DNA of 45,808 nucleotides from a virus (IMGVR_UViG_3300045988_088177:1-45808); one strand, 5' to 3'; shown: positions 13,922-43,161, counted from the stretch's first letter. The notes: generated from the letters alone by a model not told the origin. Made by a program: numbers and translations.

Positions 13922-13996
13922 TGGAGGGCTGTACAGGATTTGAACCTGTGACCTACGGATTAACAGTCCGTTGCTCTACCGCTGAGCTAACAACCC
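13922..13996 (-). tRNA. tRNA-Asn (anticodon GTT), CCA encoded
   Basis: RNA is GGGTTGT-TA-GCTC-AGCGGTA-GAGC-A-ACGGA-CTGTTAA-TCCGT-AGGTC-ACAGG-TTCAAAT-CCTGT-ACAGCCC-T-CCA. It folds into a full cloverleaf of 75 nt. Confidence 0.9.
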
Positions 13997-14081
13997 ATAT
14001 GGCCCTGGCTTACGGTGCCAGGGAACCGCTTTGCCCGTTTCCGGGTTTCATCGCCGATAGGGAGGCCATCGGCGATATATA

Positions 14082-14151
14082 TGGCGCGAGGCAGATTTGA
14101 ACGGCCTTCTGTGGGGGGGAGAGGTGAACCCCACTCGCTGTCTGCTGCGCC
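14082..14151 (-). other. Degenerate tRNA-like element (canonical T-loop, imperfect acceptor and T stems, no D-arm)
   Basis: RNA is GGCGCAG...GGCCG-TTCAAAT-CTGCC-TCGCGCC-A. The acceptor stem is 5 bp plus an A-C mismatch and a G-U pair. The T stem has one C-U mismatch. The only anticodon-like helix is GGGG/CCCC with a 9-nt loop. Confidence 0.3.
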
Positions 14152-14341
14152 AAATTTTAGTCTTCTATTCTTCATGTACTCGGCTTGTGGCCGAGTACAT
14201 GTTTTTGTGGGACGGGGCAAGCTACTTTGAGCTATCGTACGCTTATGTACACTTATCGTACAATGCTGTTCCTTCTCCTTCGCTTTGGCTGCCTTGCGCA
14301 TACAGCAGTTATCGGCGTGCTTGAATTGTCCAGCTCCCCGC

Positions 14342-14415
14342 TGGTTGCGGCAGAAAGAATCGAACTTCCATTACATGGGTCAAAACCATGTGCCTTACCT
14401 TTTGGCTATGCCGCA
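14342..14415 (-). tRNA. tRNA-Gln (anticodon TTG), CCA encoded
   Basis: RNA is TGCGGCA-TA-GCC-AAAAGGTAA-GGC-A-CATGG-TTTTGAC-CCATG-TAAT-GGAAG-TTCGATT-CTTTC-TGCCGCA-A-CCA. The U1-A72 pair and 3-bp D stem match bacterial tRNA-Gln. Confidence 0.9.
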
Positions 14416-14419
14416 GTGT

Positions 14420-14466
14420 AAAAAAGAAGGGCTTCCGACACCAATTTCAGGTATCGAAAGCCCTTC
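14420..14466 (-). terminator. Intrinsic terminator after the portal gene
   Basis: Minus RNA is GAAGGGCUUUCGA...UCGGAAGCCCUUC (13-bp stem with one G-U pair) followed by UUUUUU. tRNA-Gln starts 4 nt later. Confidence 0.8.
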
Positions 14467-14593
14467 GGCTGTAATCTCCCGCACTTCGGGAGCCGTCAAT
14501 TTTCAGTTTACCTTCTTCCGTCGAATCTCAATGACCACAAGCTGGCCCTGTTCGACTTTGATCTCCGCCTGGTTCCGGCGGTGGATGATTTCT

Positions 14594-16048
14594 TCAATCG
14601 CCCGAATTTCCTTGGTTGTCATTCGGATTGCCGATTTGGCTTCCGTTTCCATTGGCGTTCCCTCCGTTCTGTGCGGCCAGCTGCGCCGCTTTTTCTTCCT
14701 GCTCTTTCATGTAATCCATGCTCATGCGGTAAGCGAGCTGCGGGTCGCTGAACAATCCACAGTGGGTAAACGCCAATTCAGGGGCGATTTTCTCGCAAGC
14801 GAGCATCTGCGTTAGGACTGTTGCCTTTTGGGCAATGTTCTCGTAATTTCTACGGGTGAACCTAATTTCCAGAGCGGACAGCCGCAAGTTCAGATTGCCC
14901 ATGTCCCGGCAGATACGTAGCGTCAGCTTCAGGAACTCTTTTTCGGACTTCTTGAATACCGGTTCCGTGTCCTTCGCCCTGGCCTCCGCAGCAGACCAGC
15001 CGTCACGCATGATGACCGCCGTTCCAGTGTCAGATGTGGAGGTGCCGCCGTTCCGGTTTGGCATCCCGCAGATGGTCAACACGGTTTCATACATACTGTC
15101 CATCAGCGTCTGAGTCTGGGCCTGGTTCAGTTCGGAGTTCAGGTAGGATATCTCCGCTTTCATAGTAGCGTCAATGTCCTTGAACTTGATGCCGCCCAAC
15201 TCCTTCAATGCCTGGAACTTCTCTTCATCGATATCCACATTGTGAAACAGGATCAGGGACTGAATGAACTGCTCCACGCCGTCTACCCGGTTGCTCTCCG
15301 TCATGTTGATGGCATCCAGCAGCGGCACCACGATTTCAAAGGCCCCAAGCCTTGCCTGGTTCAGCGGGTATTCGATGATGGGAATGCCCAAAATCTGGTC
15401 TTCGCTGTGAATCACGTCCCAGGTGTTCCAGACCTCAAAATACCGGTCCTGCGTCCAGCAGGAGAACACAATGGTCTTGTCCTCCTTGATCACATACCGA
15501 ACCCCCATCATGGGCTTGTGCCCCAGCCCTACGGAGTACACCACAAAGGCATACCTTGGGTCAAGGGTGAAGATTTCAAAGGGGGCTTCGTCCTCCTCCA
15601 CATCCGCCATAGCGTCCGGCAGAACCATCCGATAGGCGGTGCCGCAAATGTGCATCCAGTCCGCCAGCTCTTTGTCCTGGGCCTGTTTGTCCTCGGAAAG
15701 CATGTAATCATTTAGCGTCAGCACCTCGGAAGCCGCCGCCTCGTCGTTACCCCGGCTCACATACTGGATGGGTTCGCCCACCAGATAGCCGGTCTTGAAG
15801 GAGACAATCTCGTTCGCCCGGTTCTCCACGATCATGTTGTTGATTTCCGGTCGGACTTCCTTCTTCCGCCCCAAAATCGGCTGGTCGCCCCGGTAGTACT
15901 TGTACAGGTAGTCAATTTCCGACTGATTTTGCAGGTGCGTAAACAGCGCCTTTTGCAGCACATCAATGATATTGCCCTCGTTGATTTCGGTCACTTCGGT
16001 ATAAATCACCCGCCGCCCGAATAACTTCCTGCTCGCCGTTTTCCGCAC
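14594..16048 (-). CDS. Portal protein (SPP1 gp6-like)
   Basis: 484 aa. N-terminal pattern (YLYKYYRGDQPILGRKKEVRPEINNMIVENRANEIVSFKTGY) is typical of SPP1-type portals. The exact start is uncertain because the GTG at 16048 abuts the G-run RBS. Confidence 0.9.
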   Translation of the reverse strand: MRKTASRKLFGRRVIYTEVTEINEGNIIDVLQKALFTHLQNQSEIDYLYKYYRGDQPILGRKKEVRPEINNMIVENRANEIVSFKTGYLVGEPIQYVSRGNDEAAASEVLTLNDYMLSEDKQAQDKELADWMHICGTAYRMVLPDAMADVEEDEAPFEIFTLDPRYAFVVYSVGLGHKPMMGVRYVIKEDKTIVFSCWTQDRYFEVWNTWDVIHSEDQILGIPIIEYPLNQARLGAFEIVVPLLDAINMTESNRVDGVEQFIQSLILFHNVDIDEEKFQALKELGGIKFKDIDATMKAEISYLNSELNQAQTQTLMDSMYETVLTICGMPNRNGGTSTSDTGTAVIMRDGWSAAEARAKDTEPVFKKSEKEFLKLTLRICRDMGNLNLRLSALEIRFTRRNYENIAQKATVLTQMLACEKIAPELAFTHCGLFSDPQLAYRMSMDYMKEQEEKAAQLAAQNGGNANGNGSQIGNPNDNQGNSGD

Positions 16049-16071
16049 CCCCTTATATGTTCTCTCGTATC

Positions 16072-16101
16072 ATTGTATCATAAGTAGCGAATGGTTGTAA
16101 A
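16072..16101 (-). promoter_or_regulatory. Sigma-70-type promoter upstream of portal
   Basis: On the minus strand: TTTACA (16101..16096), an 18-nt spacer, then TGaTACAAT extended -10 (16080..16072). The -35 lies inside a 23-nt element repeated at 17589..17611. Confidence 0.65.
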
Positions 16102-16131
16102 GTAAATTTATGTTCACTATAGCATTCGCTA

Positions 16132-16179
16132 CTAAAAGCACAAAGCGCATCGGGTGTAGTTCCCAACACCCAAATGCGC
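16132..16179 (-). terminator. Intrinsic terminator closing the antirepressor module
   Basis: Minus RNA is GCGCAUUUGGGUGU-UGGGAACU-ACACCCGAUGCGC followed by UUUGUGCUUUUAG. Confidence 0.75.
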
Positions 16180-16199
16180 TCACATTAAATATTCATTTT

Positions 16200-16412
16200 T
16201 TATCCTTTTCCAAGGAGGCTTGCCATTTCCTCCATTTTGGAGGAAATGAGGGCAAGTACATTCGTATATTGATTCACTCGTTTGCTGTTGATAACCAGCC
16301 TGTCTTCTTCCGTGTCGCAGTCCGCACACATCATATCCGACAACATTTCAACGGTGGACTGTGCCATTTTGGCATCCAGCCACAGCTTGTTAGAGGTGTG
16401 AACGTCAATCAT
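16200..16412 (-). CDS. Hypothetical small protein (last gene of the antirepressor module)
   Basis: 70-aa ORF whose start overlaps the upstream stop (ATGA). No motif recognised. Confidence 0.55.
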   Translation of the reverse strand: MIDVHTSNKLWLDAKMAQSTVEMLSDMMCADCDTEEDRLVINSKRVNQYTNVLALISSKMEEMASLLGKG

Positions 16413-17182
16413 GCCTTTTCCCCCTCCCGCAGAAACTTATTCAGGAAGTAGGTCTGTCCTTTTCCTGTGACCTTTGGCGTTTTGCTCAAAGAGGTATGCC
16501 CGTCGCTGTGGCTTACAACTGTCTCCTTGACCCGGAACAGGCCAAGCTCCATGCTGACCTGGGTAGGCATATTGTAGTCTGTTCCTGCCCGCTTGATTAA
16601 GTACCCGTTGTCCCGCATCCACTGGAACAGCCGCTTTTCTCCCATGTCCACGCCGTTCTGCTTGAGAATCTTCGCAAGCTCTCCCACAAGGACGGTACTC
16701 TTGGAAGCGGCCACACTGTCCGCAAACAGAACTTTGGGTGCATCGGCCTGGACTTTGGATTCCAGGGCTTTCCGCTTGTCCGTTTCCTCTTTCAGAGCGG
16801 TTGCCACTTTCAGCAGATAATCCGGGTTCAGAATCGCCGCTTCCAGCGTTTCCGGGGTCATGTACGCTCCGTGCTTGCGGATGGAGGGGAGAACCTCAGA
16901 AGTGACCCACTTGCGGAACGGCTTGGCTTCTGGTTTGTCGGAGCGAAGAATGACAGTGTAAAGACCGCTTTCACTGATGATTGTCATATCCTGTGCGCCT
17001 CCAAGGGTGTCCACCTTGACCGACCCCCTTTCATCAGGGTCAAGCCGTTCTGCTGTATCTCTGTATTTTCTGATTCCCAGAACACTGCACACATCTTTCA
17101 GCACAAACCACGGTTCGCCGGATTTCTGTACGGTACGGACGGAGTTTTCGTTGTAGTTGAATACCTGTAAATTGTTTTCCAT
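16409..17182 (-). CDS. Antirepressor (Bro-N domain plus KilAC/ANT-type C-terminal domain)
   Basis: ATG at 17182 follows AAGGAGGA. The N-terminus (FNYNENSVRTVQKSGEPWFVLKDVCSVLG...FRKWVTSEVLPSIRKHGAY) is Bro-N-like. The C-terminus (LFADSVAASKSTVLVGELAKILKQNGVDMGEKRLFQWMRDNGYL) is KilAC-like. Confidence 0.85.
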   Translation of the reverse strand: MENNLQVFNYNENSVRTVQKSGEPWFVLKDVCSVLGIRKYRDTAERLDPDERGSVKVDTLGGAQDMTIISESGLYTVILRSDKPEAKPFRKWVTSEVLPSIRKHGAYMTPETLEAAILNPDYLLKVATALKEETDKRKALESKVQADAPKVLFADSVAASKSTVLVGELAKILKQNGVDMGEKRLFQWMRDNGYLIKRAGTDYNMPTQVSMELGLFRVKETVVSHSDGHTSLSKTPKVTGKGQTYFLNKFLREGEKA

Positions 17183-17294
17183 AATTTTCCTCCTTGATTT
17201 CTGCCCGGAGGAATGGTAAAATGTATATACCATCCCTCTGGGATTGGTTTTTGGGTGGAGTGTCCACAACTTCTTGGCGGGAGAGTGGGCACTC

Positions 17295-17543
17295 TTACTT
17301 CATTTCGGAATCACCGAACATCTGCTGCTGAATCTGTTCCAGCACGGTTCGTACCTGAACCAACTGCTCACGGCTGACTGCGTTTTCTGCCATGAACTCC
17401 TGCTTCCCGGAATTGCGGTCAAGGTCATCAGAAATCAGCTTCGTGATATAGCCCTTGTAGGTCAAGTCCAGGTTTGCAATCCGTCTGCGGACAAACTTAT
17501 ACAGCTTTTCGTCCACCCGAACGGAAATGGTCTTATCTGCCAT
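17295..17543 (-). CDS. Ribbon-helix-helix DNA-binding protein (Arc/CopG-like)
   Basis: The N-terminus MADKTISVRVDEKLYKFVRRRI is a typical RHH beta-strand plus helix. It is the first gene of the antirepressor operon. Confidence 0.7.
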   Translation of the reverse strand: MADKTISVRVDEKLYKFVRRRIANLDLTYKGYITKLISDDLDRNSGKQEFMAENAVSREQLVQVRTVLEQIQQQMFGDSEMK

Positions 17544-17566
17544 TTTCTTTCCTCCTTTCTGCCACT

Positions 17567-17595
17567 ATTTTATCAAAAAAGACCGCTTTTGTAAA
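17567..17595 (-). promoter_or_regulatory. Sigma-70-type promoter of the RHH-antirepressor operon
   Basis: On the minus strand: TTTACA (17595..17590), a 17-nt spacer, then TAAAAT (17572..17567). The -35 lies inside the 23-nt element shared with the portal promoter. Confidence 0.65.
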
Positions 17596-17697
17596 GTAAA
17601 TTTAAGTTCACGATTCACCGCCCTTTGCAAGCCAGAAGAAACGATTGAGATATTACCGTTTCTTCTGGCTTTTCCGTGTTTTGCAGGAGTCCAATGT

Positions 17698-17880
17698 TCA
17701 GGATTCCTGCTTTTCTTTTTCCAGAAGAAGATGAACACCACGCCTGATTGCTTCCGTTCGTGTGATTCCATGGACTTCACAATAGGCAATAAGACGCTCG
17801 TGCATTTCCTTATCGAACCGCACTTTTACGTCAACATCTTTTGGGTTATCTGCTTTTGGCCTTCCTGTTCTCGGAGACAT
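17698..17880 (-). CDS. Ribbon-helix-helix protein (CopG/Mnt-like)
   Basis: 60 aa. RTGRPKADNPKDVDVKVRFDKEMHERLIAYCEVHGITRTEAIRRGV has the classic CopG-type RHH layout. GAGGTGA RBS. Confidence 0.75.
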   Translation of the reverse strand: MSPRTGRPKADNPKDVDVKVRFDKEMHERLIAYCEVHGITRTEAIRRGVHLLLEKEKQES

Positions 17881-17892
17881 AAGTTCACCTCA

Positions 17893-17943
17893 CTTTTTGT
17901 GTTCCGATAATTGGATTATATATTATGGAACACAAAAAGTCAA
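17893..17943 (-). promoter_or_regulatory. Consensus promoter with an embracing 13-bp inverted-repeat operator
   Basis: On the minus strand: TTGACT (17943..17938), a 17-nt spacer, then TATAAT (17920..17915). The perfect inverted repeat CTTTTTGTGTTCC / GGAACACAAAAAG (17893-17905 and 17927-17939) brackets the -10. Confidence 0.75.
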
Positions 17944-17951
17944 GCATTATT

Positions 17952-19604
17952 TTAGAACGGCCTTGCAAAAACCTCCACGCTGCCCCCATTCAGCGATTGG
18001 GCGTACTCAGCGAACATCGCCATGCCGTCCGGAACATCGTCGTGCTTATTTTTGCCAGCCACCGTGTAGGAACAGAGCATATCCATCATGCGCCCGTAGT
18101 CCGTGTTCCGCTTGTATTTGCTTTCGTCCAGGAACAGGCAGTGTTCCTTCACCCACGCCGAATTGACGATGATTTTGGTCTCCTTGTTGGCCGTGGTGAA
18201 TTTGGTGGTAATGTTGGTCACACCGCCCAGACGCTTGACCTCGCCCTGTATCTTCTCCGCCACCCTGCGCCCGGCGGAGTTACTTTCAAACCGGCAAGCC
18301 TTTACCTTGTCCCGCACCAGAATATCCGTTAGCCGGGCATCCACCGTGTCCGGAAGGCCGTTGTCGCACACGCAGTCCGCAATGTAGTAATCCTGTCCGT
18401 ACACATACCCAACCGGGAGAAAAGCGTAGTCATTGCCCTTGTCCTTGGTATCGCACACGCCGATGATGGCATCCGGTTCCTCCCGGGGCAGCTCAAAAAA
18501 CCGTCTCAACTCATCCGGGTGGTAAACAAGGCCCTCCCGTTCAATGGGCTGGTTCATATACAGCGCTTTCCAGCTGATGCTGTCCATAATGTCCCGCTGC
18601 TCCCGGTAGAACTTGGTGGAGAAGCCCACACCGTACTGGTAATCAAAATTACTCTCGTCGTTCTCATTCATGGCAGGAATACGGATGAACTTCGCCCGGT
18701 CGTTCTTCTCATACTCCCGTTCCAGCCGTCCGATCACATCATGGACGCTCCACCGGGTGGCAATGTGCAGCTCCTTACAGTGGTCTCCGATTTTACGCTG
18801 CCTCAAGTCCGTGGTGTAGGTCTCCCACAGCTTATCCAGCCGTTCTTTGGACAGGGCCACTTCGATGCCGGAAACCAGGTCATCGCAGTAGAGCAGGGTA
18901 GCTGCCCGGTACAGACCGGCGTTGCCCGTGCCGATGGAGGTAAATTCCAGTGTCTCAAACCGCTGCCTCTTGTCAAAATCAATGCGGCAGTCCTTGGCGT
19001 TGGTCCCGGACACGGCGATTCCCGGGAATACATCGTGCCACAGGTATTCCCCTTGTGGGTCAACCAGCCGCAGCACTTCGTCGTAGCACCCCCGGATAAA
19101 GGCGTTGGAGTGACTGCCCGTCAAGATGGGACTGTTCGGCTCTCGCCCCGCCAGAAACGCCAGAAAGAACAGCGCCAGGGTCGTCTTTCCGGAACCAGGG
19201 GGCAAACTCACCGCCAGCAAGTCCAGCTTGTCGTCCACGCACAGCGCTTGCAGATCGTCCACCACGGTTTTCAGTACCTTCCGCCTGGGCTGGTAAAACC
19301 GCTTCTTCGCCTCCCGGTTCAGCTCCATGTATTGCAAGAAGCTGTCAAAATCATGTGGCGCCTCAAACAGCAAACTCAGCCGCCATTGCTCATGAAATGC
19401 CGACATCGTCAAAATATCAGTTCCATTCCGATTCATTTCCGTGTTGCACATATCCCGCAGCCGCTTATTCATCCTATGTGCCGCCTGGAAGTCCGTCTCC
19501 GCCCAAGACTGACACAGGCCGAATAAATCCATGTAAGCCTCAACATCCGTCCTGCGCCGCTCTATGGCCCCCAGAATGGAAGCAGATACCTTTTCGTAGT
19601 CCAT
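17952..19604 (-). CDS. terL: Terminase large subunit
   Basis: 550 aa with Walker A SLPPGSGKTT. Size and position upstream of portal are typical. Confidence 0.9.
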   Translation of the reverse strand: MDYEKVSASILGAIERRRTDVEAYMDLFGLCQSWAETDFQAAHRMNKRLRDMCNTEMNRNGTDILTMSAFHEQWRLSLLFEAPHDFDSFLQYMELNREAKKRFYQPRRKVLKTVVDDLQALCVDDKLDLLAVSLPPGSGKTTLALFFLAFLAGREPNSPILTGSHSNAFIRGCYDEVLRLVDPQGEYLWHDVFPGIAVSGTNAKDCRIDFDKRQRFETLEFTSIGTGNAGLYRAATLLYCDDLVSGIEVALSKERLDKLWETYTTDLRQRKIGDHCKELHIATRWSVHDVIGRLEREYEKNDRAKFIRIPAMNENDESNFDYQYGVGFSTKFYREQRDIMDSISWKALYMNQPIEREGLVYHPDELRRFFELPREEPDAIIGVCDTKDKGNDYAFLPVGYVYGQDYYIADCVCDNGLPDTVDARLTDILVRDKVKACRFESNSAGRRVAEKIQGEVKRLGGVTNITTKFTTANKETKIIVNSAWVKEHCLFLDESKYKRNTDYGRMMDMLCSYTVAGKNKHDDVPDGMAMFAEYAQSLNGGSVEVFARPF

Positions 19605-19613
19605 GTCGTCACC

Positions 19614-19985
19614 TCACAGAGCGTCTGCTTGCTCAAATGCTTTCAGCAGTTTGGGGAACTGAATTGCAATCCAGTCCACCATTTCCTCATTCTTTGCCCA
19701 TGCGGAATCAGGGGTGAAACTGTTCCATTGCAGCCCGCTTTCGTTCAGAAAAGCGTGTACGATTTCGTGCCGCAGCGTGGTTCGCTGTAGATGCTCTATC
19801 CTTTCTTCTGGCTCATTCTCCCATTCCTCATGCGTTTTGAGCAGGAGAACATAAATTTCGTGGCTATTAGCGGAGCAATACCCCCCGTAGTGCATCTTGT
19901 CCATGTATTCATCCTGCCCGGCTTCTACAAAACGGACGGTGTACTCCGTACCCAGAACCGAAATCTTTTTTGCCCTTGTATCCAT
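19614..19985 (-). CDS. Small HExxH zinc-metallopeptidase-like protein
   Basis: 123 aa with LRHEIVHAFLNESG (HExxH motif). GGAGGG RBS. It is the first gene after the 20032..20076 terminator. Confidence 0.6.
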   Translation of the reverse strand: MDTRAKKISVLGTEYTVRFVEAGQDEYMDKMHYGGYCSANSHEIYVLLLKTHEEWENEPEERIEHLQRTTLRHEIVHAFLNESGLQWNSFTPDSAWAKNEEMVDWIAIQFPKLLKAFEQADAL

Positions 19986-22028: not shown

Positions 22029-22787
22029 TTATGTTTCCAGAATTGGTTCGTGCTGGCCCTTGACCCATTCGCCGTCCTCGCCGTATCTGTATTCACCACG
22101 GTATGTCCGCTCGTTGTTCCAGATACTCTGCACTGTGGAGATTACAAATGGTTTTCCACGCCGTGTATGATACCCAGCCTCATTCAGGGCTTTGACAGTT
22201 CCAAGCATCGTGTCACCAGCGAATTTATGCTTGAATATGAAACGCACAACCTCCGCTTCTGGTTCATTGATAACAAGATGCTTATCTACGACCTTGTAGC
22301 CCATAGGAGCCTGCCCGCCAGCGTAGCCACCGGCTTTTGCTTTCTGCTTTCTTCCTCCGGTCATGCGGGAGCGGATATTCTCACGCTCAATCTGAGCGAC
22401 CATTGCCATAAAGTTCTCCAAAATCATGGCAGTCAGCTTGTCCTGCGCTGACCAATCCTCTTTGACGCTGAGAATTTCCAGCCCCAGTTCGTTCAGCCGC
22501 ATCTTAAATCCGTAGTAAAGGCAAATGTCACGGGAAAGCCGGTCCGCTCTGGCCACCACAACGTAATCCGTCGGAGGGTTTGTCACTTCTCCGCTCAAAA
22601 TCTTGTCGAGAGCCGGACGGCGTACTTTGGCACCGCTGACAGCTTCGTCGATATACCAGTTTACGACTTCTATGTCGTGCGCCTCACAGTATTCTTTAAT
22701 GTCAGACCGTTGCGCTTCAATGCCATAAGCATCTTCGCCAGTTTGCCCTTTTGTGGACACTCTCAGGTAAGCAACAGCACGTTTCAT
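22029..22787 (-). CDS. Short serine recombinase: resolvase catalytic domain plus recombinase domain, lacking the zinc-ribbon and coiled-coil
   Basis: MKRAVAYLRVSTKGQ...ARADRLSRD catalytic motifs. It ends right after ...WVKGQHEPILET, where large serine recombinases continue. ATG at 22787 follows GAGGTGA. The ATG at 22805 abuts the -10 box. Confidence 0.8.
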   Translation of the reverse strand: MKRAVAYLRVSTKGQTGEDAYGIEAQRSDIKEYCEAHDIEVVNWYIDEAVSGAKVRRPALDKILSGEVTNPPTDYVVVARADRLSRDICLYYGFKMRLNELGLEILSVKEDWSAQDKLTAMILENFMAMVAQIERENIRSRMTGGRKQKAKAGGYAGGQAPMGYKVVDKHLVINEPEAEVVRFIFKHKFAGDTMLGTVKALNEAGYHTRRGKPFVISTVQSIWNNERTYRGEYRYGEDGEWVKGQHEPILET

Positions 22788-22805
22788 ACTTATCACCTCG
22801 CCCAT

Positions 22806-23080: not shown

Positions 23081-23109
23081 TTGACAATTACGTCTAATCG
23101 TTGTATAAT
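23081..23109 (+). promoter_or_regulatory. Perfect consensus promoter of the plus-strand operon with operator in the spacer
   Basis: TTGACA, spacer attacgtctaatcgttg (17 nt), then TATAAT. The motif ACAATTACGTCTA (23084-23096) also occurs at 22814-22826, and TTACGTCTA at 23057-23065. Confidence 0.8.
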
Positions 23110-23221
23110 GTCAACGTAAACAAAAAAGCGCCCCGGCAGCCGTAGGAAGCCCGGGACGCACCACACAAGGAGGCCCCTACATTGTAGCACGGCCCCCGGA
23201 AGAATGCAAGGAGGAAATACC

Positions 23222-23440: not shown

Positions 23441-24160
23441 ATGGAAAAATATGTTGATATTCTGGCCGCTATTGCCGACACCCGGGCCGCTATGGTAGAC
23501 CCCGAAAAGAGCGAGAAAGAATTTGCTAGAAATGCGGTAAAAATCGCTTACAAGACCGGCACGGATGCCGAACTAGCCGCAGCAGAGGCCGCCTATAAGG
23601 CCGCAGAAGAAAAATACGTTGCTGATTGCAAACATAACGAGGGCTTAAAAATAGCCCTTGAAATCCTTAAAGATAACGCAGCCAACGCCTTTTTTGCGGA
23701 GTCCATCGGCACTATTTGCACCATCTGGAATAAATACGCCGGGAAGCCGCACGGCGAAAAGACCGCTGAAAAAATCCGGAAGGAACTTTTCGAGGCCCTG
23801 GGCGTTAGGGTGTATATCACAAACAAGTATGATGATGCTTGTATAACTTGCTATGATTTGGGCCGAAATGCCCCGTTTCGGCAGCTGGAATTTTACGCAA
23901 GCCGCAAAGCTGGCGTAAACGTCCCGGCCCTTGTTGGCAACAAAGTGCAGGCATTAAACCCCGATTGTTTCCGGCTGTATTGCTGTGGCGGCTACGTCGA
24001 CGACGTGCCCGCCCAGGTGGAGGCGATCAGGGCGGCCCACGAAAAGGCCAGAGAAGCAGAAGCGGCTTTTTCCGCTGCCGTATCCGCTTATAACAACCTA
24101 ACCCGCGGGAATATCGTCAGAGCGTCCACCCGTGAGGGCGTGAAAAGCTGGCTTATTTGA
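23441..24160 (+). CDS. Hypothetical protein (Ala-rich helical N- and C-termini)
   Basis: 239-aa ORF with a GGGGGA RBS. No motif recognised. Confidence 0.65.
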   Translation: MEKYVDILAAIADTRAAMVDPEKSEKEFARNAVKIAYKTGTDAELAAAEAAYKAAEEKYVADCKHNEGLKIALEILKDNAANAFFAESIGTICTIWNKYAGKPHGEKTAEKIRKELFEALGVRVYITNKYDDACITCYDLGRNAPFRQLEFYASRKAGVNVPALVGNKVQALNPDCFRLYCCGGYVDDVPAQVEAIRAAHEKAREAEAAFSAAVSAYNNLTRGNIVRASTREGVKSWLI

Positions 24161-40228: not shown

Positions 40229-40555
40229 ATGTTTTACAAAAAGTTTATCGGACTATGCAACGAGAACAGAGTAACCCCTTCTTACGTTGGAAATCAAATA
40301 GGCGTATCAAAGGCGGCTGTATCTGGGTGGAAAACAGGTTCCATGCCTAGAGACACCCAGCTGGCAAAGATCGCTGACTACTTCGGTGTTCCTGTCTCCT
40401 ACTTCTCTGAGGAAACCCCGGAAACGGAAAAATCCCCGGCTCCCGACAGGGAAACCGAGGAGTTCGCCAGATACTTCGCCATGCTCACGCCGGAGCATCA
40501 GCAGCAGATTCGTTCTGCAATGGCTGAGTTGATAAAAGAGCAGCTTCAAGGGTAA
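40229..40555 (+). CDS. XRE-family HTH repressor (CI-position)
   Basis: NENRVTPSYVGNQIGVSKAAVSGWKTGSMPRDTQLAKIADYFGV is a classic XRE HTH. Confidence 0.85.
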   Translation: MFYKKFIGLCNENRVTPSYVGNQIGVSKAAVSGWKTGSMPRDTQLAKIADYFGVPVSYFSEETPETEKSPAPDRETEEFARYFAMLTPEHQQQIRSAMAELIKEQLQG

Positions 40556-40886
40556 GTATCTTCCTCTTATTCTCTTCGTTCAGCTGTTCCCACATTTCCA
40601 AAACCTCTTCCAACATTGTCGCCGCCCCTTTACAAGTTATTATCGAATGTACGTTCAATTCATACCTTATGTATAGCACTTGAAATGTCCGATAAAACGG
40701 ACTAATAATTGCCCCGCCGCCCGTGCCACAAGGCAGCGGGGCTGCCACCGGATGCGTTTATCCCTTGCCGGTTGGCGTACCATTATGGTACTCTGCGACG
40801 GTAGGTTTCGTAAATACGCACATCAGAAATTCCGGTGCTCTCATGAAAATCCACCGTTCTGTATTAGAAATGTAAGGGGGCAAACC

Positions 40887-41516
40887 ATGGCAAACCAGCA
40901 AATCATTCAGCAAATTTCTACAATTTGCGAAAATCTTCCTACGAAAATGAAGAACGCCAAGGAAGACCAGCGTAAAACGAACCAGCAAATCATAGACAGC
41001 ACCGGGCTGAGCGAATCTACCGTCAAAAAATTTTTCTCAGGGCATCTATCCGGGCCAAGCATCTATGATGTTACGGCCATAGCCATTGATCTGGGCCTTT
41101 CTCTTGATGAACTGATGGAGATTTCACCGCCAAGGCAAGACCAAAGCGCTGAAATTGCGCAGCTAAAAACCGAGCTCGCCCACAAAGAGGAAATGATTGC
41201 TGAGAAGGGCAAAGCCATATCCAGGCTGGAAGACAGAAGCCACATAATGGAAAATGAAATTTCTACAGTCCGTAGTAACTGGAAGGAAATTGCCTATGTA
41301 ACATCTGGTCTTTCTGTGCTGTTTGGTTTGCTCCTGATGGTATATGTAACCTTGGACGCTAGGAATCCAAATCTTGGCCTAATTAGGGGCACCACAACAG
41401 CCCCAATTGTGTACGTTGCGGCTTTTTCCATTATCGGAATGTGCTTGTATATCGTCCGAACAGTGGCAAGGCGAAACGCAAAAGGGAGGAAACGGGATGC
41501 AAACAATGCCCATTGA
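40887..41516 (+). CDS. Membrane-anchored HTH protein (XRE-like HTH, coiled coil, two TM helices)
   Basis: ATG at 40887 follows GGGGG. HTH is QQIIDSTGLSESTVKKFFSG...IYDVTAIAIDLGLSLDEL. TM segments are VTSGLSVLFGLLLMVYV and IVYVAAFSIIGMCLYIV. Confidence 0.7.
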   Translation: MANQQIIQQISTICENLPTKMKNAKEDQRKTNQQIIDSTGLSESTVKKFFSGHLSGPSIYDVTAIAIDLGLSLDELMEISPPRQDQSAEIAQLKTELAHKEEMIAEKGKAISRLEDRSHIMENEISTVRSNWKEIAYVTSGLSVLFGLLLMVYVTLDARNPNLGLIRGTTTAPIVYVAAFSIIGMCLYIVRTVARRNAKGRKRDANNAH

Positions 41517-43161
41517 CCTGTCGGCGCTGACTCCGGAGGAAAGGCAGCAGTTTGCGGAGAATCCTTCTGTGCTGTCCACAGACTGCGTGGCCACCTGCTG
41601 CCTGTATATGCGCTATTCCTCCGACCGGCAATCGGAACAGTCCATAGAGGGCCAGCTCCGGGAATTGATATCATACTGTATCCGGCAAGAATACCGTATT
41701 GCCGCCGTGTATGTGGACCGGGCAATATCTGCCCATACCAGCATGGCAAAACGTGTAGCATTTCAGCAGATGCTTGCAGACAGCAAGCGAGCCGCATGGA
41801 ACACCGTGCTCGTGTGGAAGCTTGACCGCTTCGCCCGGAACCGTCAGGACAGCGCCGCCGCCCGTGCCCTTCTGTACAAAAACGGCTGCGGCGTGGAATC
41901 CGCCACGGAGGCCATTTCCGCCACCAAGGAGGGCCGTCTCCTGGAATCTGTCTTGGAGGGTCTGAATGAATATTACTCCGACGAACTCCGGGAGAAAATC
42001 ATCCGCGGCAACCGGGAAAGCGCCCTAAAAGGGAACGCCCTGGGTGGTTCTGTTCCTCTTGGTTACAAAATCGAAAACAAAAAATGGGCAATTGACCCAC
42101 TAACCGCACCATTGGTGTCTGAGGCTTTCGACAGATACGCCAGCGGGGATACTGTAGCCGCCATCTGCGATGATTTTAACGCCAGAGGCTACCGTACAGC
42201 AAAGGGTGCTAAATTTAATAAAAGCAGTTTCAAGAATATCTTCCGAAACGAGAAATACATTGGCGTGTACAAATACAAGGATATTCGCCAGGAAGATTCT
42301 GTTCCGAGAATTGTCACAGACGATGTGTGGGCAAAGGTAAAAGCTCGTCTGAAAGTCAATGAGTCAGCCCCTGCCAGGGGAAAAGCCAAGGTGCCATATC
42401 TACTCGCCGGTAAGATTTTCTGTGGCCATTGCGGCTCTCAGATGGTCGGAGAGTGTGGCAGGAGCAAGAACGGCCATACCTACAATTACTACTCCTGCGC
42501 AGGTCGCAAAATCCGAAGGGACTGTAATAAAAAGCCAGTCCCGAAGGACTGGATAGAGGATATTGTTGTCCAGGATGCCTTGGAGGTCCTGACGGATGAT
42601 GTCATTGATTATGTCGCTACCGTCGCCGCCCGCCAGTCAGAAGAGGAAATACAGCAGAATACCAACATCCCCGCTATCCGGGAGCAGATCGCCGATATTG
42701 AACGCAAGGTGCGTAACCTGACCAAGGCTATAGAGACCAGCGGAATGGCCCCTGACACGCTGGTATCCAGGATTGCAGAATTGGAGTCCCAACGCAAAGG
42801 ATTATCCGCCCAGCTGTTGGAAGAGCAGCATTCCGTCATCCACCTAACCAAGGAAATGGTGGTCTACTACCTGGAATCCGTTCGTAAGCAGGCCGTCCCG
42901 CTGGAAACCCAGAAAAAGATGCTCATAGACCTGTTTGTCAACTCCGTCACAGTTTACGACGATGACCAGGGCTATTTCAAAATCATAACCGCTTACAATT
43001 TATCAGAAGTTCCGACAAAAACATATCGTGTTTCTACATCATTTGTAGAAGCCGGGAGTTCGGATACGGGGCCGAATGGTCCACCATTGGACGCAAATCC
43101 GAACACGATAACCGTTTCCGGAATGGTCTTCGTCCAAACCAGAAAACACGCCTTGCCGTAA
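41497..43161 (+). CDS. int: Large serine recombinase (integrase)
   Basis: ATG follows GGGAGG. Has the resolvase core (YMRYSSDRQ...WKLDRFARN), a recombinase domain, a zinc ribbon (CGHCGS...YYSCAGRKIRRDC) and a coiled coil. 554 aa. Confidence 0.9.
   Translation: MQTMPIDLSALTPEERQQFAENPSVLSTDCVATCCLYMRYSSDRQSEQSIEGQLRELISYCIRQEYRIAAVYVDRAISAHTSMAKRVAFQQMLADSKRAAWNTVLVWKLDRFARNRQDSAAARALLYKNGCGVESATEAISATKEGRLLESVLEGLNEYYSDELREKIIRGNRESALKGNALGGSVPLGYKIENKKWAIDPLTAPLVSEAFDRYASGDTVAAICDDFNARGYRTAKGAKFNKSSFKNIFRNEKYIGVYKYKDIRQEDSVPRIVTDDVWAKVKARLKVNESAPARGKAKVPYLLAGKIFCGHCGSQMVGECGRSKNGHTYNYYSCAGRKIRRDCNKKPVPKDWIEDIVVQDALEVLTDDVIDYVATVAARQSEEEIQQNTNIPAIREQIADIERKVRNLTKAIETSGMAPDTLVSRIAELESQRKGLSAQLLEEQHSVIHLTKEMVVYYLESVRKQAVPLETQKKMLIDLFVNSVTVYDDDQGYFKIITAYNLSEVPTKTYRVSTSFVEAGSSDTGPNGPPLDANPNTITVSGMVFVQTRKHALP

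Follow-up and report, generated by a model that had tools for sequence, protein, structure and literature searches.

A terL/portal accessory cassette of a gut Clostridia phage combines ribbon-helix-helix genes, a predicted antisense RNA and a Bro-N/KilAC gene

What are two small ribbon-helix-helix (RHH) genes, a Bro-N/KilAC gene and a 70-amino acid open reading frame (ORF) doing between terL and portal, in the packaging operon of a phage? The question is raised by IMGVR_UViG_3300045988_088177, a viral stretch of 45,808 nucleotides (nt) that was analyzed here at its full length (the window) and that comes from a phage of gut Clostridia carrying a 1.8-kb accessory cassette at the terL/portal junction. 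A first reading of this DNA, made from the sequence alone (the sequence-only reading), had taken the unit for a secondary immunity region like immI of Salmonella phage P22. We consider it probable, though well short of assured, that the cassette is a horizontally acquired ant moron in which autorepression by the first RHH protein (RHH1), together with an antisense RNA and a structured leader, gates a cargo resembling the AriS regulator of a Listeria phage, with an immunity-type role exerted in trans. The anatomy of the unit, its insertion, the folds of its proteins, and its patterns of conservation and covariation were established directly.

The genes of this region are all encoded by the minus strand, in the order terL, rhh1, rhh2, ant, orf70, portal. 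The locus is defined by the following features (positions are those of the window).

17952-19604, minus strand: terL (phrog_38, 2e-62).
16130-17952, minus strand: the inserted cassette ('ant moron'), 1.82 kb, not present in near-identical relatives.
16133-16181, minus strand: the cassette terminator, consisting of a hairpin (16143-16181) and a U-rich tail, UUUGUGCUUUU.
14594-16048, minus strand: portal (SPP1_portal, 9e-78).

Relatives were sampled through a TerL-based scan of IMG/VR, which yielded 80 related loci (designated by L numbers), 79 of them holding both terL and portal. The two genes are normally adjacent, as had been supposed, with a gap of at most 364 nt in 72 of these 79. The site is empty in the closest relatives, L001-L003, whose TerL proteins are 96–99% identical to that of the window and whose terL-portal gap is 95 nt. 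In a blastn comparison, L001 matched the window at ~96% identity up to 17953 and then again from 16129, and 11 nt stand in L001 where the window has the 1,822 bp of the cassette. Because relatives of ~96% identity have an empty site with exact breakpoints (17953 and 16129), 16130-17952 is a clean insertion and a self-contained accessory unit, or moron, in keeping with the separate unit that the sequence-only reading had proposed. With the terL stop codon on one side and the phage's own portal promoter on the other, the cassette fits exactly into the interval. A consensus scan of the region found eight promoter-like sites (2.1 ± 1.8 expected). The strong terminator that had been claimed for the end of the unit was also recovered (hairpin 16143-16181, -23.5 kcal/mol, z = -4.3), and it is kept in L217, L218, and L221.

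The terL-portal junction is a recurrent insertion hot spot. Other Ant cassettes fill it in L005/L006 and L012-L014, and further loci have other inserts there.

L090, 3996-4841: a GIY-YIG/NUMOD3 homing endonuclease.
L070, 1429-2103: a methyltransferase-like ORF.
L071, 4161-4328: a Zn-ribbon ORF.
L218, 2894-3130, and L221, 3232-3470: a repeat-rich non-coding element of ~270 nt, directly 3' of the terL stop codon.

Relatives of TerL are contained in metagenome-assembled genomes of Oscillospiraceae and Ruminococcus. Among GenBank phages, a megablast search with 14500-19700 gave no match, and a search by TerL protein gave distant relatives only (≤44% identity).

At the head of the cassette stands rhh1, behind a strong promoter and a palindrome.

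17698-17880, minus strand: rhh1, encoding a 60-amino acid CopG-family RHH protein with an N-terminal MSPRTGRP arm.
17915-17943, minus strand: promoter P1 (TTGACT-17-TATAAT), with 11 of 12 consensus matches.
17892-17940: O1, a perfect 14-nt inverted repeat around the -10 element of P1 (arms 17892-17905 and 17927-17940).
17629-17671: a perfect 15-bp hairpin 3' of rhh1 with its U-tract on the plus strand (-25.7 kcal/mol, z = -7.9).

RHH1 matches phrog_876 (1.6e-16), and its homologues form more than 313 clusters (90%), many of them already annotated with PF10723 or PF01402 or named 'CopG family'. A profile of RHH1 alleles matched ParG, SvtR, ORF56, and CopG-family chains in the PDB; single-sequence PDB searches with RHH1 and RHH2 were uninformative. 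The AlphaFold model (predicted local distance difference test, pLDDT, 82) has an extended segment at residues 15–22 and helices at 24–37 and 41–59. Foldseek matched this model almost exclusively to RHH proteins (TacA1, ORF56, CopA, AmrZ, ParG, NikA, Arc, and CopG), with template-modeling (TM) scores of 0.65–0.88 and a root-mean-square deviation of about 1 Å. On the basis of the model, RHH1 is a ribbon-helix-helix protein with a strand-helix-helix fold of ~45 residues; the family match, AlphaFold, and Foldseek thus agree with the CopG-like protein of 60 amino acids that had been called from the DNA.

The sequence-only reading had placed P1 within a perfect 13-bp inverted repeat. Both promoter and palindrome are indeed present, and the repeat is 14 nt long; its half-site has no further exact copy within the window. 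In related cassettes, the same CTTGACT...TATAAT scaffold precedes every RHH allele and is followed by AAAG(T)GAGGTGA-ATG, whereas the repeat that brackets the -10 element varies with the allele. About 17 such allele/operator pairs occur across the related cassettes, among them the following.

RHH strand VKVRFD: operator repeat TTTTTGTGTTCC / GGAACACAAAAA.
RHH strand FSVRLD: operator repeat TTTTTGTCACGC / GCGTGACAGAAA.
RHH strand LKIRAD: operator repeat TTTCTGTGTACAC / GTGTACACAGAAA.
RHH strand LRVRMD: operator repeat TTTTCTGTTGCTACA / TGTAGCAACAGAAAA.
RHH strand LTVRVD: operator repeat TTTTGACnGTC / GACnGTCAAAA.

Since each of the ~17 RHH alleles has its own matching repeat at a constant promoter, RHH1 would almost certainly bind at the palindromic P1 and repress its own synthesis. 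The repeats at the -10 element of P1 are direct rather than inverted in L134, L154/L168, and L203 (e.g., GCCAGACAAAA twice, GTGGTTAGCTAC twice), which suggests a different binding geometry for these few RHH alleles.

The spacer between rhh2 and ant holds a second set of putative control elements.

17194-17222, plus strand: Pas, an antisense promoter identified by promoter scan (TTGATT-17-TGgTAAAAT; -35 element TTGATT at 17194-17199, extended -10 element TGgTAAAAT ending at 17222).
17229-17305, plus strand: a predicted antisense RNA of ~77 nt with a 5' tail, a terminator hairpin (17257-17294), and a U-rich tail.
17204-17242, minus strand: the ant leader hairpin, with a 3' arm, AUUCCUCCGGGC, as anti-Shine-Dalgarno (anti-SD) sequence.
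17190-17324, minus strand: a match to covariance model R1 (48.3 bits, E about 1e-8).

A Pas-type promoter occurs in 42 of 42 unique related cassettes, with the pattern TTGnnN (mostly TTGAyN), 16–18 nt, TGnTA(G/A)AAT; TAAACT occurs in three. It is kept where the surrounding or loop sequence differs, as among the window, L217, and L029 (the last judged by eye). The predicted RNA of the window folds at -31.6 kcal/mol (z = -3.4), and its counterparts in relatives are 68–77 nt long, with terminator stems of -18 to -24 kcal/mol and runs of 4–7 T. For the hairpin 3' of each RHH stop codon, a T-run is confined to the antisense strand (means of 5.3 vs 0.15 T per 9 nt). We predict from these patterns that a conserved antisense RNA is encoded in the rhh2-ant spacer. 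It would begin 34 nt upstream of the Shine-Dalgarno (SD) sequence of ant and so would not cover it. Two further candidates were set aside. A scan of 15900-18100 against Rfam gave no significant family, and the best match, to ctRNA_pT181 (17216-17309, plus strand, 24.5 bits, E = 2.5), at the place and on the strand of the predicted RNA, was treated as chance. A second plus-strand promoter (17157-17185, TTGAAT-17-CATAAT), inside the first codons of ant, was not adopted because relatives conserve it poorly.

The leader of ant folds at -26.2 kcal/mol (z = -4.5). Across cassettes, the Pas spacer co-varies with sequence beyond the Pas start site, the two together forming a hairpin of 12–19 bp that is possible only in the leader of the sense mRNA. 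When 22 variants were aligned without gaps, 88% of cells were paired, as compared with 69% in shuffles and 27–57% in slid controls; cells with double changes number 51 vs 17.5 ± 4, and the observed score was reached by 0 of 500 shuffles. The 3' arm always holds CCUC(C/U) and can pair with the cargo's own SD region. This pairing amounts to -12.0 kcal/mol in the window, and the family mean is -9.7 kcal/mol vs -4.2 ± 2.0 kcal/mol for shuffled arms. A covariance model of the RHH-cargo intergenic element (R1), built without window-type sequences, recovered 17190-17324 as its sole significant match in the window. A weak match at 23098-23213 (E = 0.11) is without the leader motif and was dismissed.

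The hairpin directly 3' of rhh1 (17629-17671) has compensatory changes in L217 and L218, and no antisense promoter was seen between it and rhh2. It may be what remains of the antisense terminator of an earlier front end; alternatively, it may serve to catch transcripts reading through from Pas.

The cassette of the window has a second RHH gene, downstream of its own promoter.

17295-17543, minus strand: rhh2, encoding an 82-amino acid RHH protein with a C-terminal helix (residues 58–80).
17567-17595, minus strand: promoter P2 (TTTACA-17-TGaTAAAAT), a putative captured copy of the portal promoter.
17589-17611, minus strand: 23-nt element, copy 1, overlapping the -35 element of P2.
16072-16101, minus strand: P3, the native portal promoter (TTTACA-18-TGaTACAAT), part of the backbone and not of the cassette.
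16095-16117, minus strand: 23-nt element, copy 2, within the P3 region (16072-16133).
16083-16093 and 16123-16133: arms of an 11-nt inverted repeat flanking P3.

The rhh2 product is rare, with 14 representatives at E ≤ 1e-3 among 1.8 billion proteins. Members of its family match CopG_antitoxin, NikA-like, Omega repressor, RHH_10, and ParD in Pfam, and its profile aligns with that of the RHH1 family over the RHH core (hhalign, E = 1.6e-4). The AlphaFold model (pLDDT 79) has a strand or extended segment at residues 3–10, helices at 12–25 and 29–44, a linker, and a helix at 58–80; its top Foldseek matches are DinJ, TacA1, CdbA, and RelB, all at weak E-values, and the RHH2 profile found nothing in the PDB. 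Pfam matches of family members, the model, and hhalign together assign RHH2 the RHH fold, so that AlphaFold bore out this fold in both small proteins. An RHH domain followed by a C-terminal helix is the build of Mnt, not of Arc. By its model RHH2 is thus built like Mnt, and the part of the earlier call that did not hold is the likeness to Arc. Among rhh2 homologues the order is always terL, RHH2, Ant, orf70, portal. A 44%-identical relative of RHH2 is the sole RHH protein in the cassette of L221, with its own palindrome, CTGCATG...CATGCAG, at such a promoter. Since this relative sits alone behind a palindromic promoter, the RHH2 family appears to be another front-end allele.

P2 is the second promoter that the sequence-only reading had listed, and the 23-nt element that it had named exists, in two copies in the window that are identical at 22 of 23 positions (none expected by chance). 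A role as cassette operator for the element did not survive comparison. The empty site of L001-L003 already has P3, the 23-nt element, and the flanking inverted repeat, which makes the element a part of the native portal promoter. Over about 60 nt, the P2 and P3 regions are homologous, and P2 moves with rhh2 into other backbones (the two are kept together in L217 and L218). These sequences are best explained if P2 was captured as a copy of the portal promoter. The idea that, within one genome, the element co-evolves at P2 and at the portal promoter was rejected, as the element at P2 of L217 matches the window's portal copy at 21 of 23 positions and L217's own at 18 of 23. Compared by eye, the 23-nt element matches the LexA (Cheo) box only partially (GAAC-N4-ATTT). 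The native promoter is conserved in all relatives (L001 3296-3360; the junction in L002-L062), with its P3 hexamers and with a flanking repeat that co-varies. This repeat takes the forms GGCGAATG/CATTCGCC, GCCGATGGTT/AACCATCCGC, and CTCTCCAATGGTT/AACCATAGGAGAG by lineage, and the quasi-palindromic 23-nt element lies between its arms.

The genes that these elements would control are ant and orf70. The candidate main repressor of the phage lies elsewhere in the window.

16409-17182, minus strand: ant, 257 amino acids, with Bro-N (2e-25) and ANT/KilAC (3e-37) domains by Pfam; phrog_130, 9e-108.
16200-16412, minus strand: orf70, 70 amino acids, its start overlapping the ant stop (ATGA).
40229-40555, plus strand: candidate main repressor, a 108-amino acid HTH_3 protein without a self-cleavage/peptidase domain.

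Ant is the sole Bro-N/KilAC protein encoded in the 45.8-kb window and has the domains previously assigned to it (Bro-N, residues 15–99; ANT, residues 141–251). The P22_AR_N match (E = 0.015, 15.9 bits) falls under the cut-off of 30.7, and Pfam gave no match to P22_AR_C. By its domains Ant is not a homologue of P22 Ant, and its architecture is AriS-like. The overlap of start and stop codons indicates that orf70 is translationally coupled to ant. As had been noted, orf70 belongs to no known family, with no match in Pfam, PHROG, PADLOC, or NCBIfam. In 105 collection blocks a copy of 100% identity is indexed, always 3' of ant among the contigs listed. Kinship with the small ORFs that lie beside Bro-N genes in other cassettes was rejected after a hidden Markov model search without a match. 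Ten loci with an identical 70-amino acid protein share one phage backbone and have differing front ends. Across these ten, the KilAC half of Ant is 94–100% identical and orf70 100%, whereas the Bro-N half ranges from 26 to 100%. A swapped Bro-N domain on a constant KilAC domain is the pattern described for AriS-like proteins (PMC9043618). By this likeness in architecture the cargo may be an SOS modulator, a role that rivals antirepression. The SOS response of Listeria is inhibited by the KilAC domain, also by that of a Bro-N+KilAC protein, and the phage itself is regulated by the interchangeable N-terminal domain (PMC9043618).

Antirepression is the role that Ant would have if the unit were a true P22-type secondary immunity region. 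Ant would then be a classical antirepressor of the phage's XRE-type main repressor and of those of related prophages, with RHH1 acting as Mnt in lysogen maintenance, RHH2 as Arc in shutting off ant after a burst, and the antisense RNA as sar. The parts list of the P22 ant moron (PMC2629481) is matched by a moron of the late/packaging operon that has two RHH genes, a gene annotated as ant, and a predicted antisense RNA. The phrog_130 match of Ant carries the name 'anti-repressor Ant', and the Bro-N half is swapped among cassettes as a specificity domain would be. The candidate main repressor, without a cleavage domain, needs a non-proteolytic route of induction, which makes an antirepressor plausible. 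We nevertheless regard this explanation as unlikely, although it deserves a serious hearing. The P22_AR domains are not significant in Ant, rhh1 is co-directional whereas mnt is divergent, the RHH1 operator lies at its own promoter only, most cassettes have a single RHH gene, the predicted antisense RNA ends short of the ribosome-binding site, and no Rfam family was matched in the region. The only Firmicutes Bro-N+KilAC proteins that have been tested inhibited SOS or growth and not a phage repressor (PMC9043618, PMC5944126). What stands of the likeness to immI claimed by the sequence-only reading is therefore the regulatory logic, to which a predicted sar-like antisense RNA can be added, and what falls is membership of the family, with no P22_AR domain, no divergent mnt, and an RNA that does not lie over the ribosome-binding site. 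Next to the candidate repressor, on its 3' side (40229-41516, plus strand), is a 278-amino acid ORF with weak HTH matches and a hydrophobic C-terminal stretch, which we read as membrane-anchored.

The growth effect of phi11 Gp07, a Bro + KilA protein that inhibits growth through its KilA domain (PMC5944126), brings up a restrained toxic module for addiction or abortive infection. The KilAC protein, with or without orf70, would be harmful, and the RHH proteins and antisense RNA would be antitoxin-like brakes whose release, by decay of a labile RNA after prophage loss or by superinfection, would arrest the cell or kill it. Such double negative control, in which an RHH protein is joined by a short antisense RNA, is typical of systems that restrain harmful genes, and the RHH2 family weakly matches the antitoxin RHH families CopG_antitoxin, ParD, HicB, and TacA. 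Nevertheless, none of the four cassette proteins matched in PADLOC, and no toxin domain was recognizable. For a toxin or defense protein beside the RHH genes, PADLOC, Pfam, and NCBIfam gave no match with Ant or orf70, and NCBIfam gave no useful match for Ant, orf70, or RHH2. Several cargoes behind such front ends are without KilAC (Bro-N, Rha) or unrelated (TnpB, HNH-like ORFs), and the growth inhibition that follows overexpression in E. coli is a weak argument for a toxin role. We find this account improbable.

How far the arrangement extends beyond the window was assessed by scanning viral contigs for a 16-nt loop motif, which gave at least 120 matching stretches. About 70 of the 120 motif matches listed were chance occurrences inside unrelated genes and were removed by context; among the matches listed, about 50 are genuine front-end elements, and at least 35 of these are unique after filtering. 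All have the order RHH stop, antisense terminator, leader hairpin, ATCAAG, SD sequence, start codon. Behind them stand small ORFs and then genes for Bro-N+HTH, Rha, Bro-N, or Bro-N+KilAC proteins (HTH, helix-turn-helix); a few of the genes are HNH-like or TnpB genes, and several front ends adjoin head genes. Most cassettes have one RHH gene; two occur only in the window type, L082/L087, L217/L218, and L013, the last a full tandem. The tandem of L013 (8686-10345) stacks two complete front ends, each with RHH gene, antisense promoter, and leader, before one ant-orf69 pair, the first leader running directly into P1 of the second.

The mosaic character of all junctions of the cassette, and the gathering of unrelated inserts, including a homing endonuclease, at the terL-portal junction, are what would be seen if the unit were a selfish passenger with no role for the phage. 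Front end and cargo would have spread by recombination into permissive intergenic sites, and regulation would only limit the cost to the carrier. We hold this to be very improbable. The KilAC half and orf70 are kept 94–100% identical in ten same-backbone loci, with orf70 in 105 blocks; the cassette encodes no recombinase or endonuclease of its own; and specificity pairs so elaborate and diversified speak for selection on function. The many repressor/operator and RNA/target pairs on near-identical backbones suggest selection for trans specificity between co-resident or incoming phages.

The reading that we favor, autorepression by RHH1 and gating of the cargo by an antisense RNA and leader, would work as follows. 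A dimer of the CopG-type RHH1 would bind the 14-nt palindrome at the -10 element and shut its own strong promoter P1. Transcription of rhh2-ant-orf70 would start from P2 and probably also reach these genes by read-through from P1. Pas would give a constitutive antisense RNA of ~77 nt, ending at a terminator at the rhh2 stop codon. This RNA would pair with the 5' arm of the leader hairpin and with the leader upstream of it, just 5' of the ant ribosome-binding site, and so open the hairpin; the freed anti-SD 3' arm would then occlude the ribosome-binding site. In this way ant and orf70 would be silenced and translation of the RHH genes spared. Upon entry of the DNA into a cell without the matching repressor and RNA, a burst of cargo would be made, as with pMV158 CopG/RNAII-repB and P22 arc/sar-ant, and cargo would be low in a lysogen or in a cell already bearing the same allele. 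The conserved KilAC half, with orf70, would most likely act on a conserved host function, which by analogy with Listeria would be SOS/RecA, and the swappable Bro-N half would target a phage-specific repressor or DNA. Together the two halves would tune the induction of the phage itself and of co-resident prophages. Binding, RNA expression, the ribosome-binding-site switch, and cargo activity are the steps of this scheme that we infer.

Several points weigh against the scheme. The antisense RNA is a prediction only, and the U-tract of its terminator is poor in the window (UUACUUCAUUUC). The sequences behind the covariation measures are related to one another, and the hairpin folds about as well on one strand as on the other. 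Part of the anti-SD signal is generic, as pairs across variants still average -7.6 kcal/mol. Foldseek E-values are weak for proteins as small as these (>0.1 for RHH1, >1 for RHH2). An RHH2 operator was looked for at P2 and no palindrome was seen, so that the scheme does not explain the second tier of control; the ant operon begins with rhh2, and in relatives with a single RHH gene the covariation of RHH and operator supports autorepression. The element common to P2 and P3 would be bound by a putative factor that the cassette does not encode, and the timing of ant may for this reason follow that of the head genes and not a burst upon entry. The scheme also leaves the hairpin at 17629-17671 unexplained, and the role of KilAC is extrapolated from Listeria proteins that are about 30% identical to one another.

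A wider generalization is possible, and we offer it tentatively, with more doubt than confidence. An RHH gene, a countertranscript, and a structured leader may together be a portable immunity front end, similar to plasmid copy control, with at least 17 repressor/operator pairs and at least eight leader stems, that gates Bro-N, Rha, and KilAC proteins in structural operons of gut Clostridia phages. It would be a widespread and undescribed system of secondary immunity or incompatibility that operates through an antisense-triggered anti-SD switch. If so, the front end would decide which co-resident or incoming phages switch others on or mute the SOS response of the host, and a switch of this type has not been described for P22 sar or pMV158 RNAII.

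Other features of the genome lie apart from the cassette. Between portal and the scaffold genes are genes for tRNA-Asn and tRNA-Gln (13922-13996 and 14342-14415, minus strand). A 425-nt stretch with tRNA-Gln (indel 13996-14422) is replaced by about 111 nt in L001, a second presence/absence difference from this relative. Just upstream of the packaging genes, 22029-22805 (minus strand) encodes a 258-amino acid serine recombinase (Resolvase+Recombinase) that is also found in relatives, and 41407-43161 (plus strand) encodes a 584-amino acid large serine recombinase in the lysogeny module. A 239-amino acid ORF on the plus strand (23441-24160), within a block of minus-strand genes and just 3' of the weak R1 match, has no Pfam match and may be another moron.

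Lysogeny control and the interplay of prophages are almost unstudied in gut bacteria of the Oscillospiraceae/Ruminococcus type, whose phages are abundant in human metagenomes. The occurrence of many alleles on near-identical backbones points to selection for immunity or incompatibility among competing phages. The cassettes provide matched repressor/operator pairs, a predicted antisense RNA of 70–80 nt with a co-varying target hairpin, and natural empty-site controls. In addition, the label 'antirepressor' on Bro-N/KilAC proteins of Firmicutes should not be taken to imply a function like that of P22 Ant.

The control logic of the cassette resembles that of P22 immI (arc/sar/ant) and, arguably more closely, that of pMV158 (CopG/RNAII), and the two find a common counterpart here in one exchangeable module at a defined hot spot. 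The ant moron of P22 lies in the late operon, varies among relatives, and comprises mnt, arc, the antisense sar, and ant (PMC2629481; PMC13397905). Similarly, the present cassette is an accessory unit within a late operon that is present or absent among close relatives (PMC2629481), with putative RHH repressors over ant, an RHH gene first in the ant operon, a small predicted antisense RNA between this RHH gene and ant, and a terminator at its end, such that downstream late genes need re-initiation or read-through. The differences are that the host is a Gram-positive member of Clostridia and the phage a siphovirus; that Ant consists of Bro-N and KilAC and not of P22_AR_N and P22_AR_C; that rhh1 is upstream and co-directional with its own promoter, with no divergent mnt-type layout; that the predicted antisense RNA covers the leader 5' of the ribosome-binding site and not the site itself; and that there is a 70-amino acid partner gene and a promoter that appears to be a copy of the portal promoter.

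In pMV158, copG comes first and its product represses its own promoter; RNAII, of 48 nt, is made up of a 5' tail and an intrinsic terminator, has its gene in the copG-repB spacer, and shows complementarity to the mRNA just 5' of the repB start signals (PMC4485353). The cassette likewise begins with a small CopG-family RHH gene that has a symmetric operator at its own promoter and would be autorepressed. Its predicted countertranscript lies in the spacer between RHH gene and cargo, would have a single-stranded 5' tail and a terminator, and is complementary to the mRNA immediately 5' of the cargo's translation start signals. Relatives of RHH1 also bear PF10723, a family of replication regulators of rolling-circle-replicating (RCR) plasmids. 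The cassette differs from pMV158 in that its cargo is a phage regulator and a 70-amino acid ORF instead of a replication initiator, the predicted RNA is 68–77 nt long instead of 48 nt, a co-varying hairpin, one arm of which is anti-SD, is added in the leader, and the module occurs in a phage structural operon with many specificity alleles, two RHH tiers being stacked in the window.

The cargo finds its closest parallels in the AriS-like class, which has an N-terminal AntA/B, Bro-N, or pRha domain and an ANT/KilAC domain at the C terminus, examples being AriS of Listeria phi10403S, Lin2418 of L. innocua, and Gp07 of S. aureus phi11. Like these, Ant has Bro-N and KilAC, with KilAC constant and the N-terminal domain exchangeable, and Rha and Bro-N alternatives are found in sister cassettes. 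In C. difficile phiCDKH01, the XRE repressor represses the KilAC genes, which are its neighbors (PMC11172241). Unlike AriS-type and phiCDKH01 genes, which lie in the early or lysogeny-control region, ant is coupled to a 70-amino acid ORF and lies in the packaging operon, under a predicted RHH and antisense control of its own.

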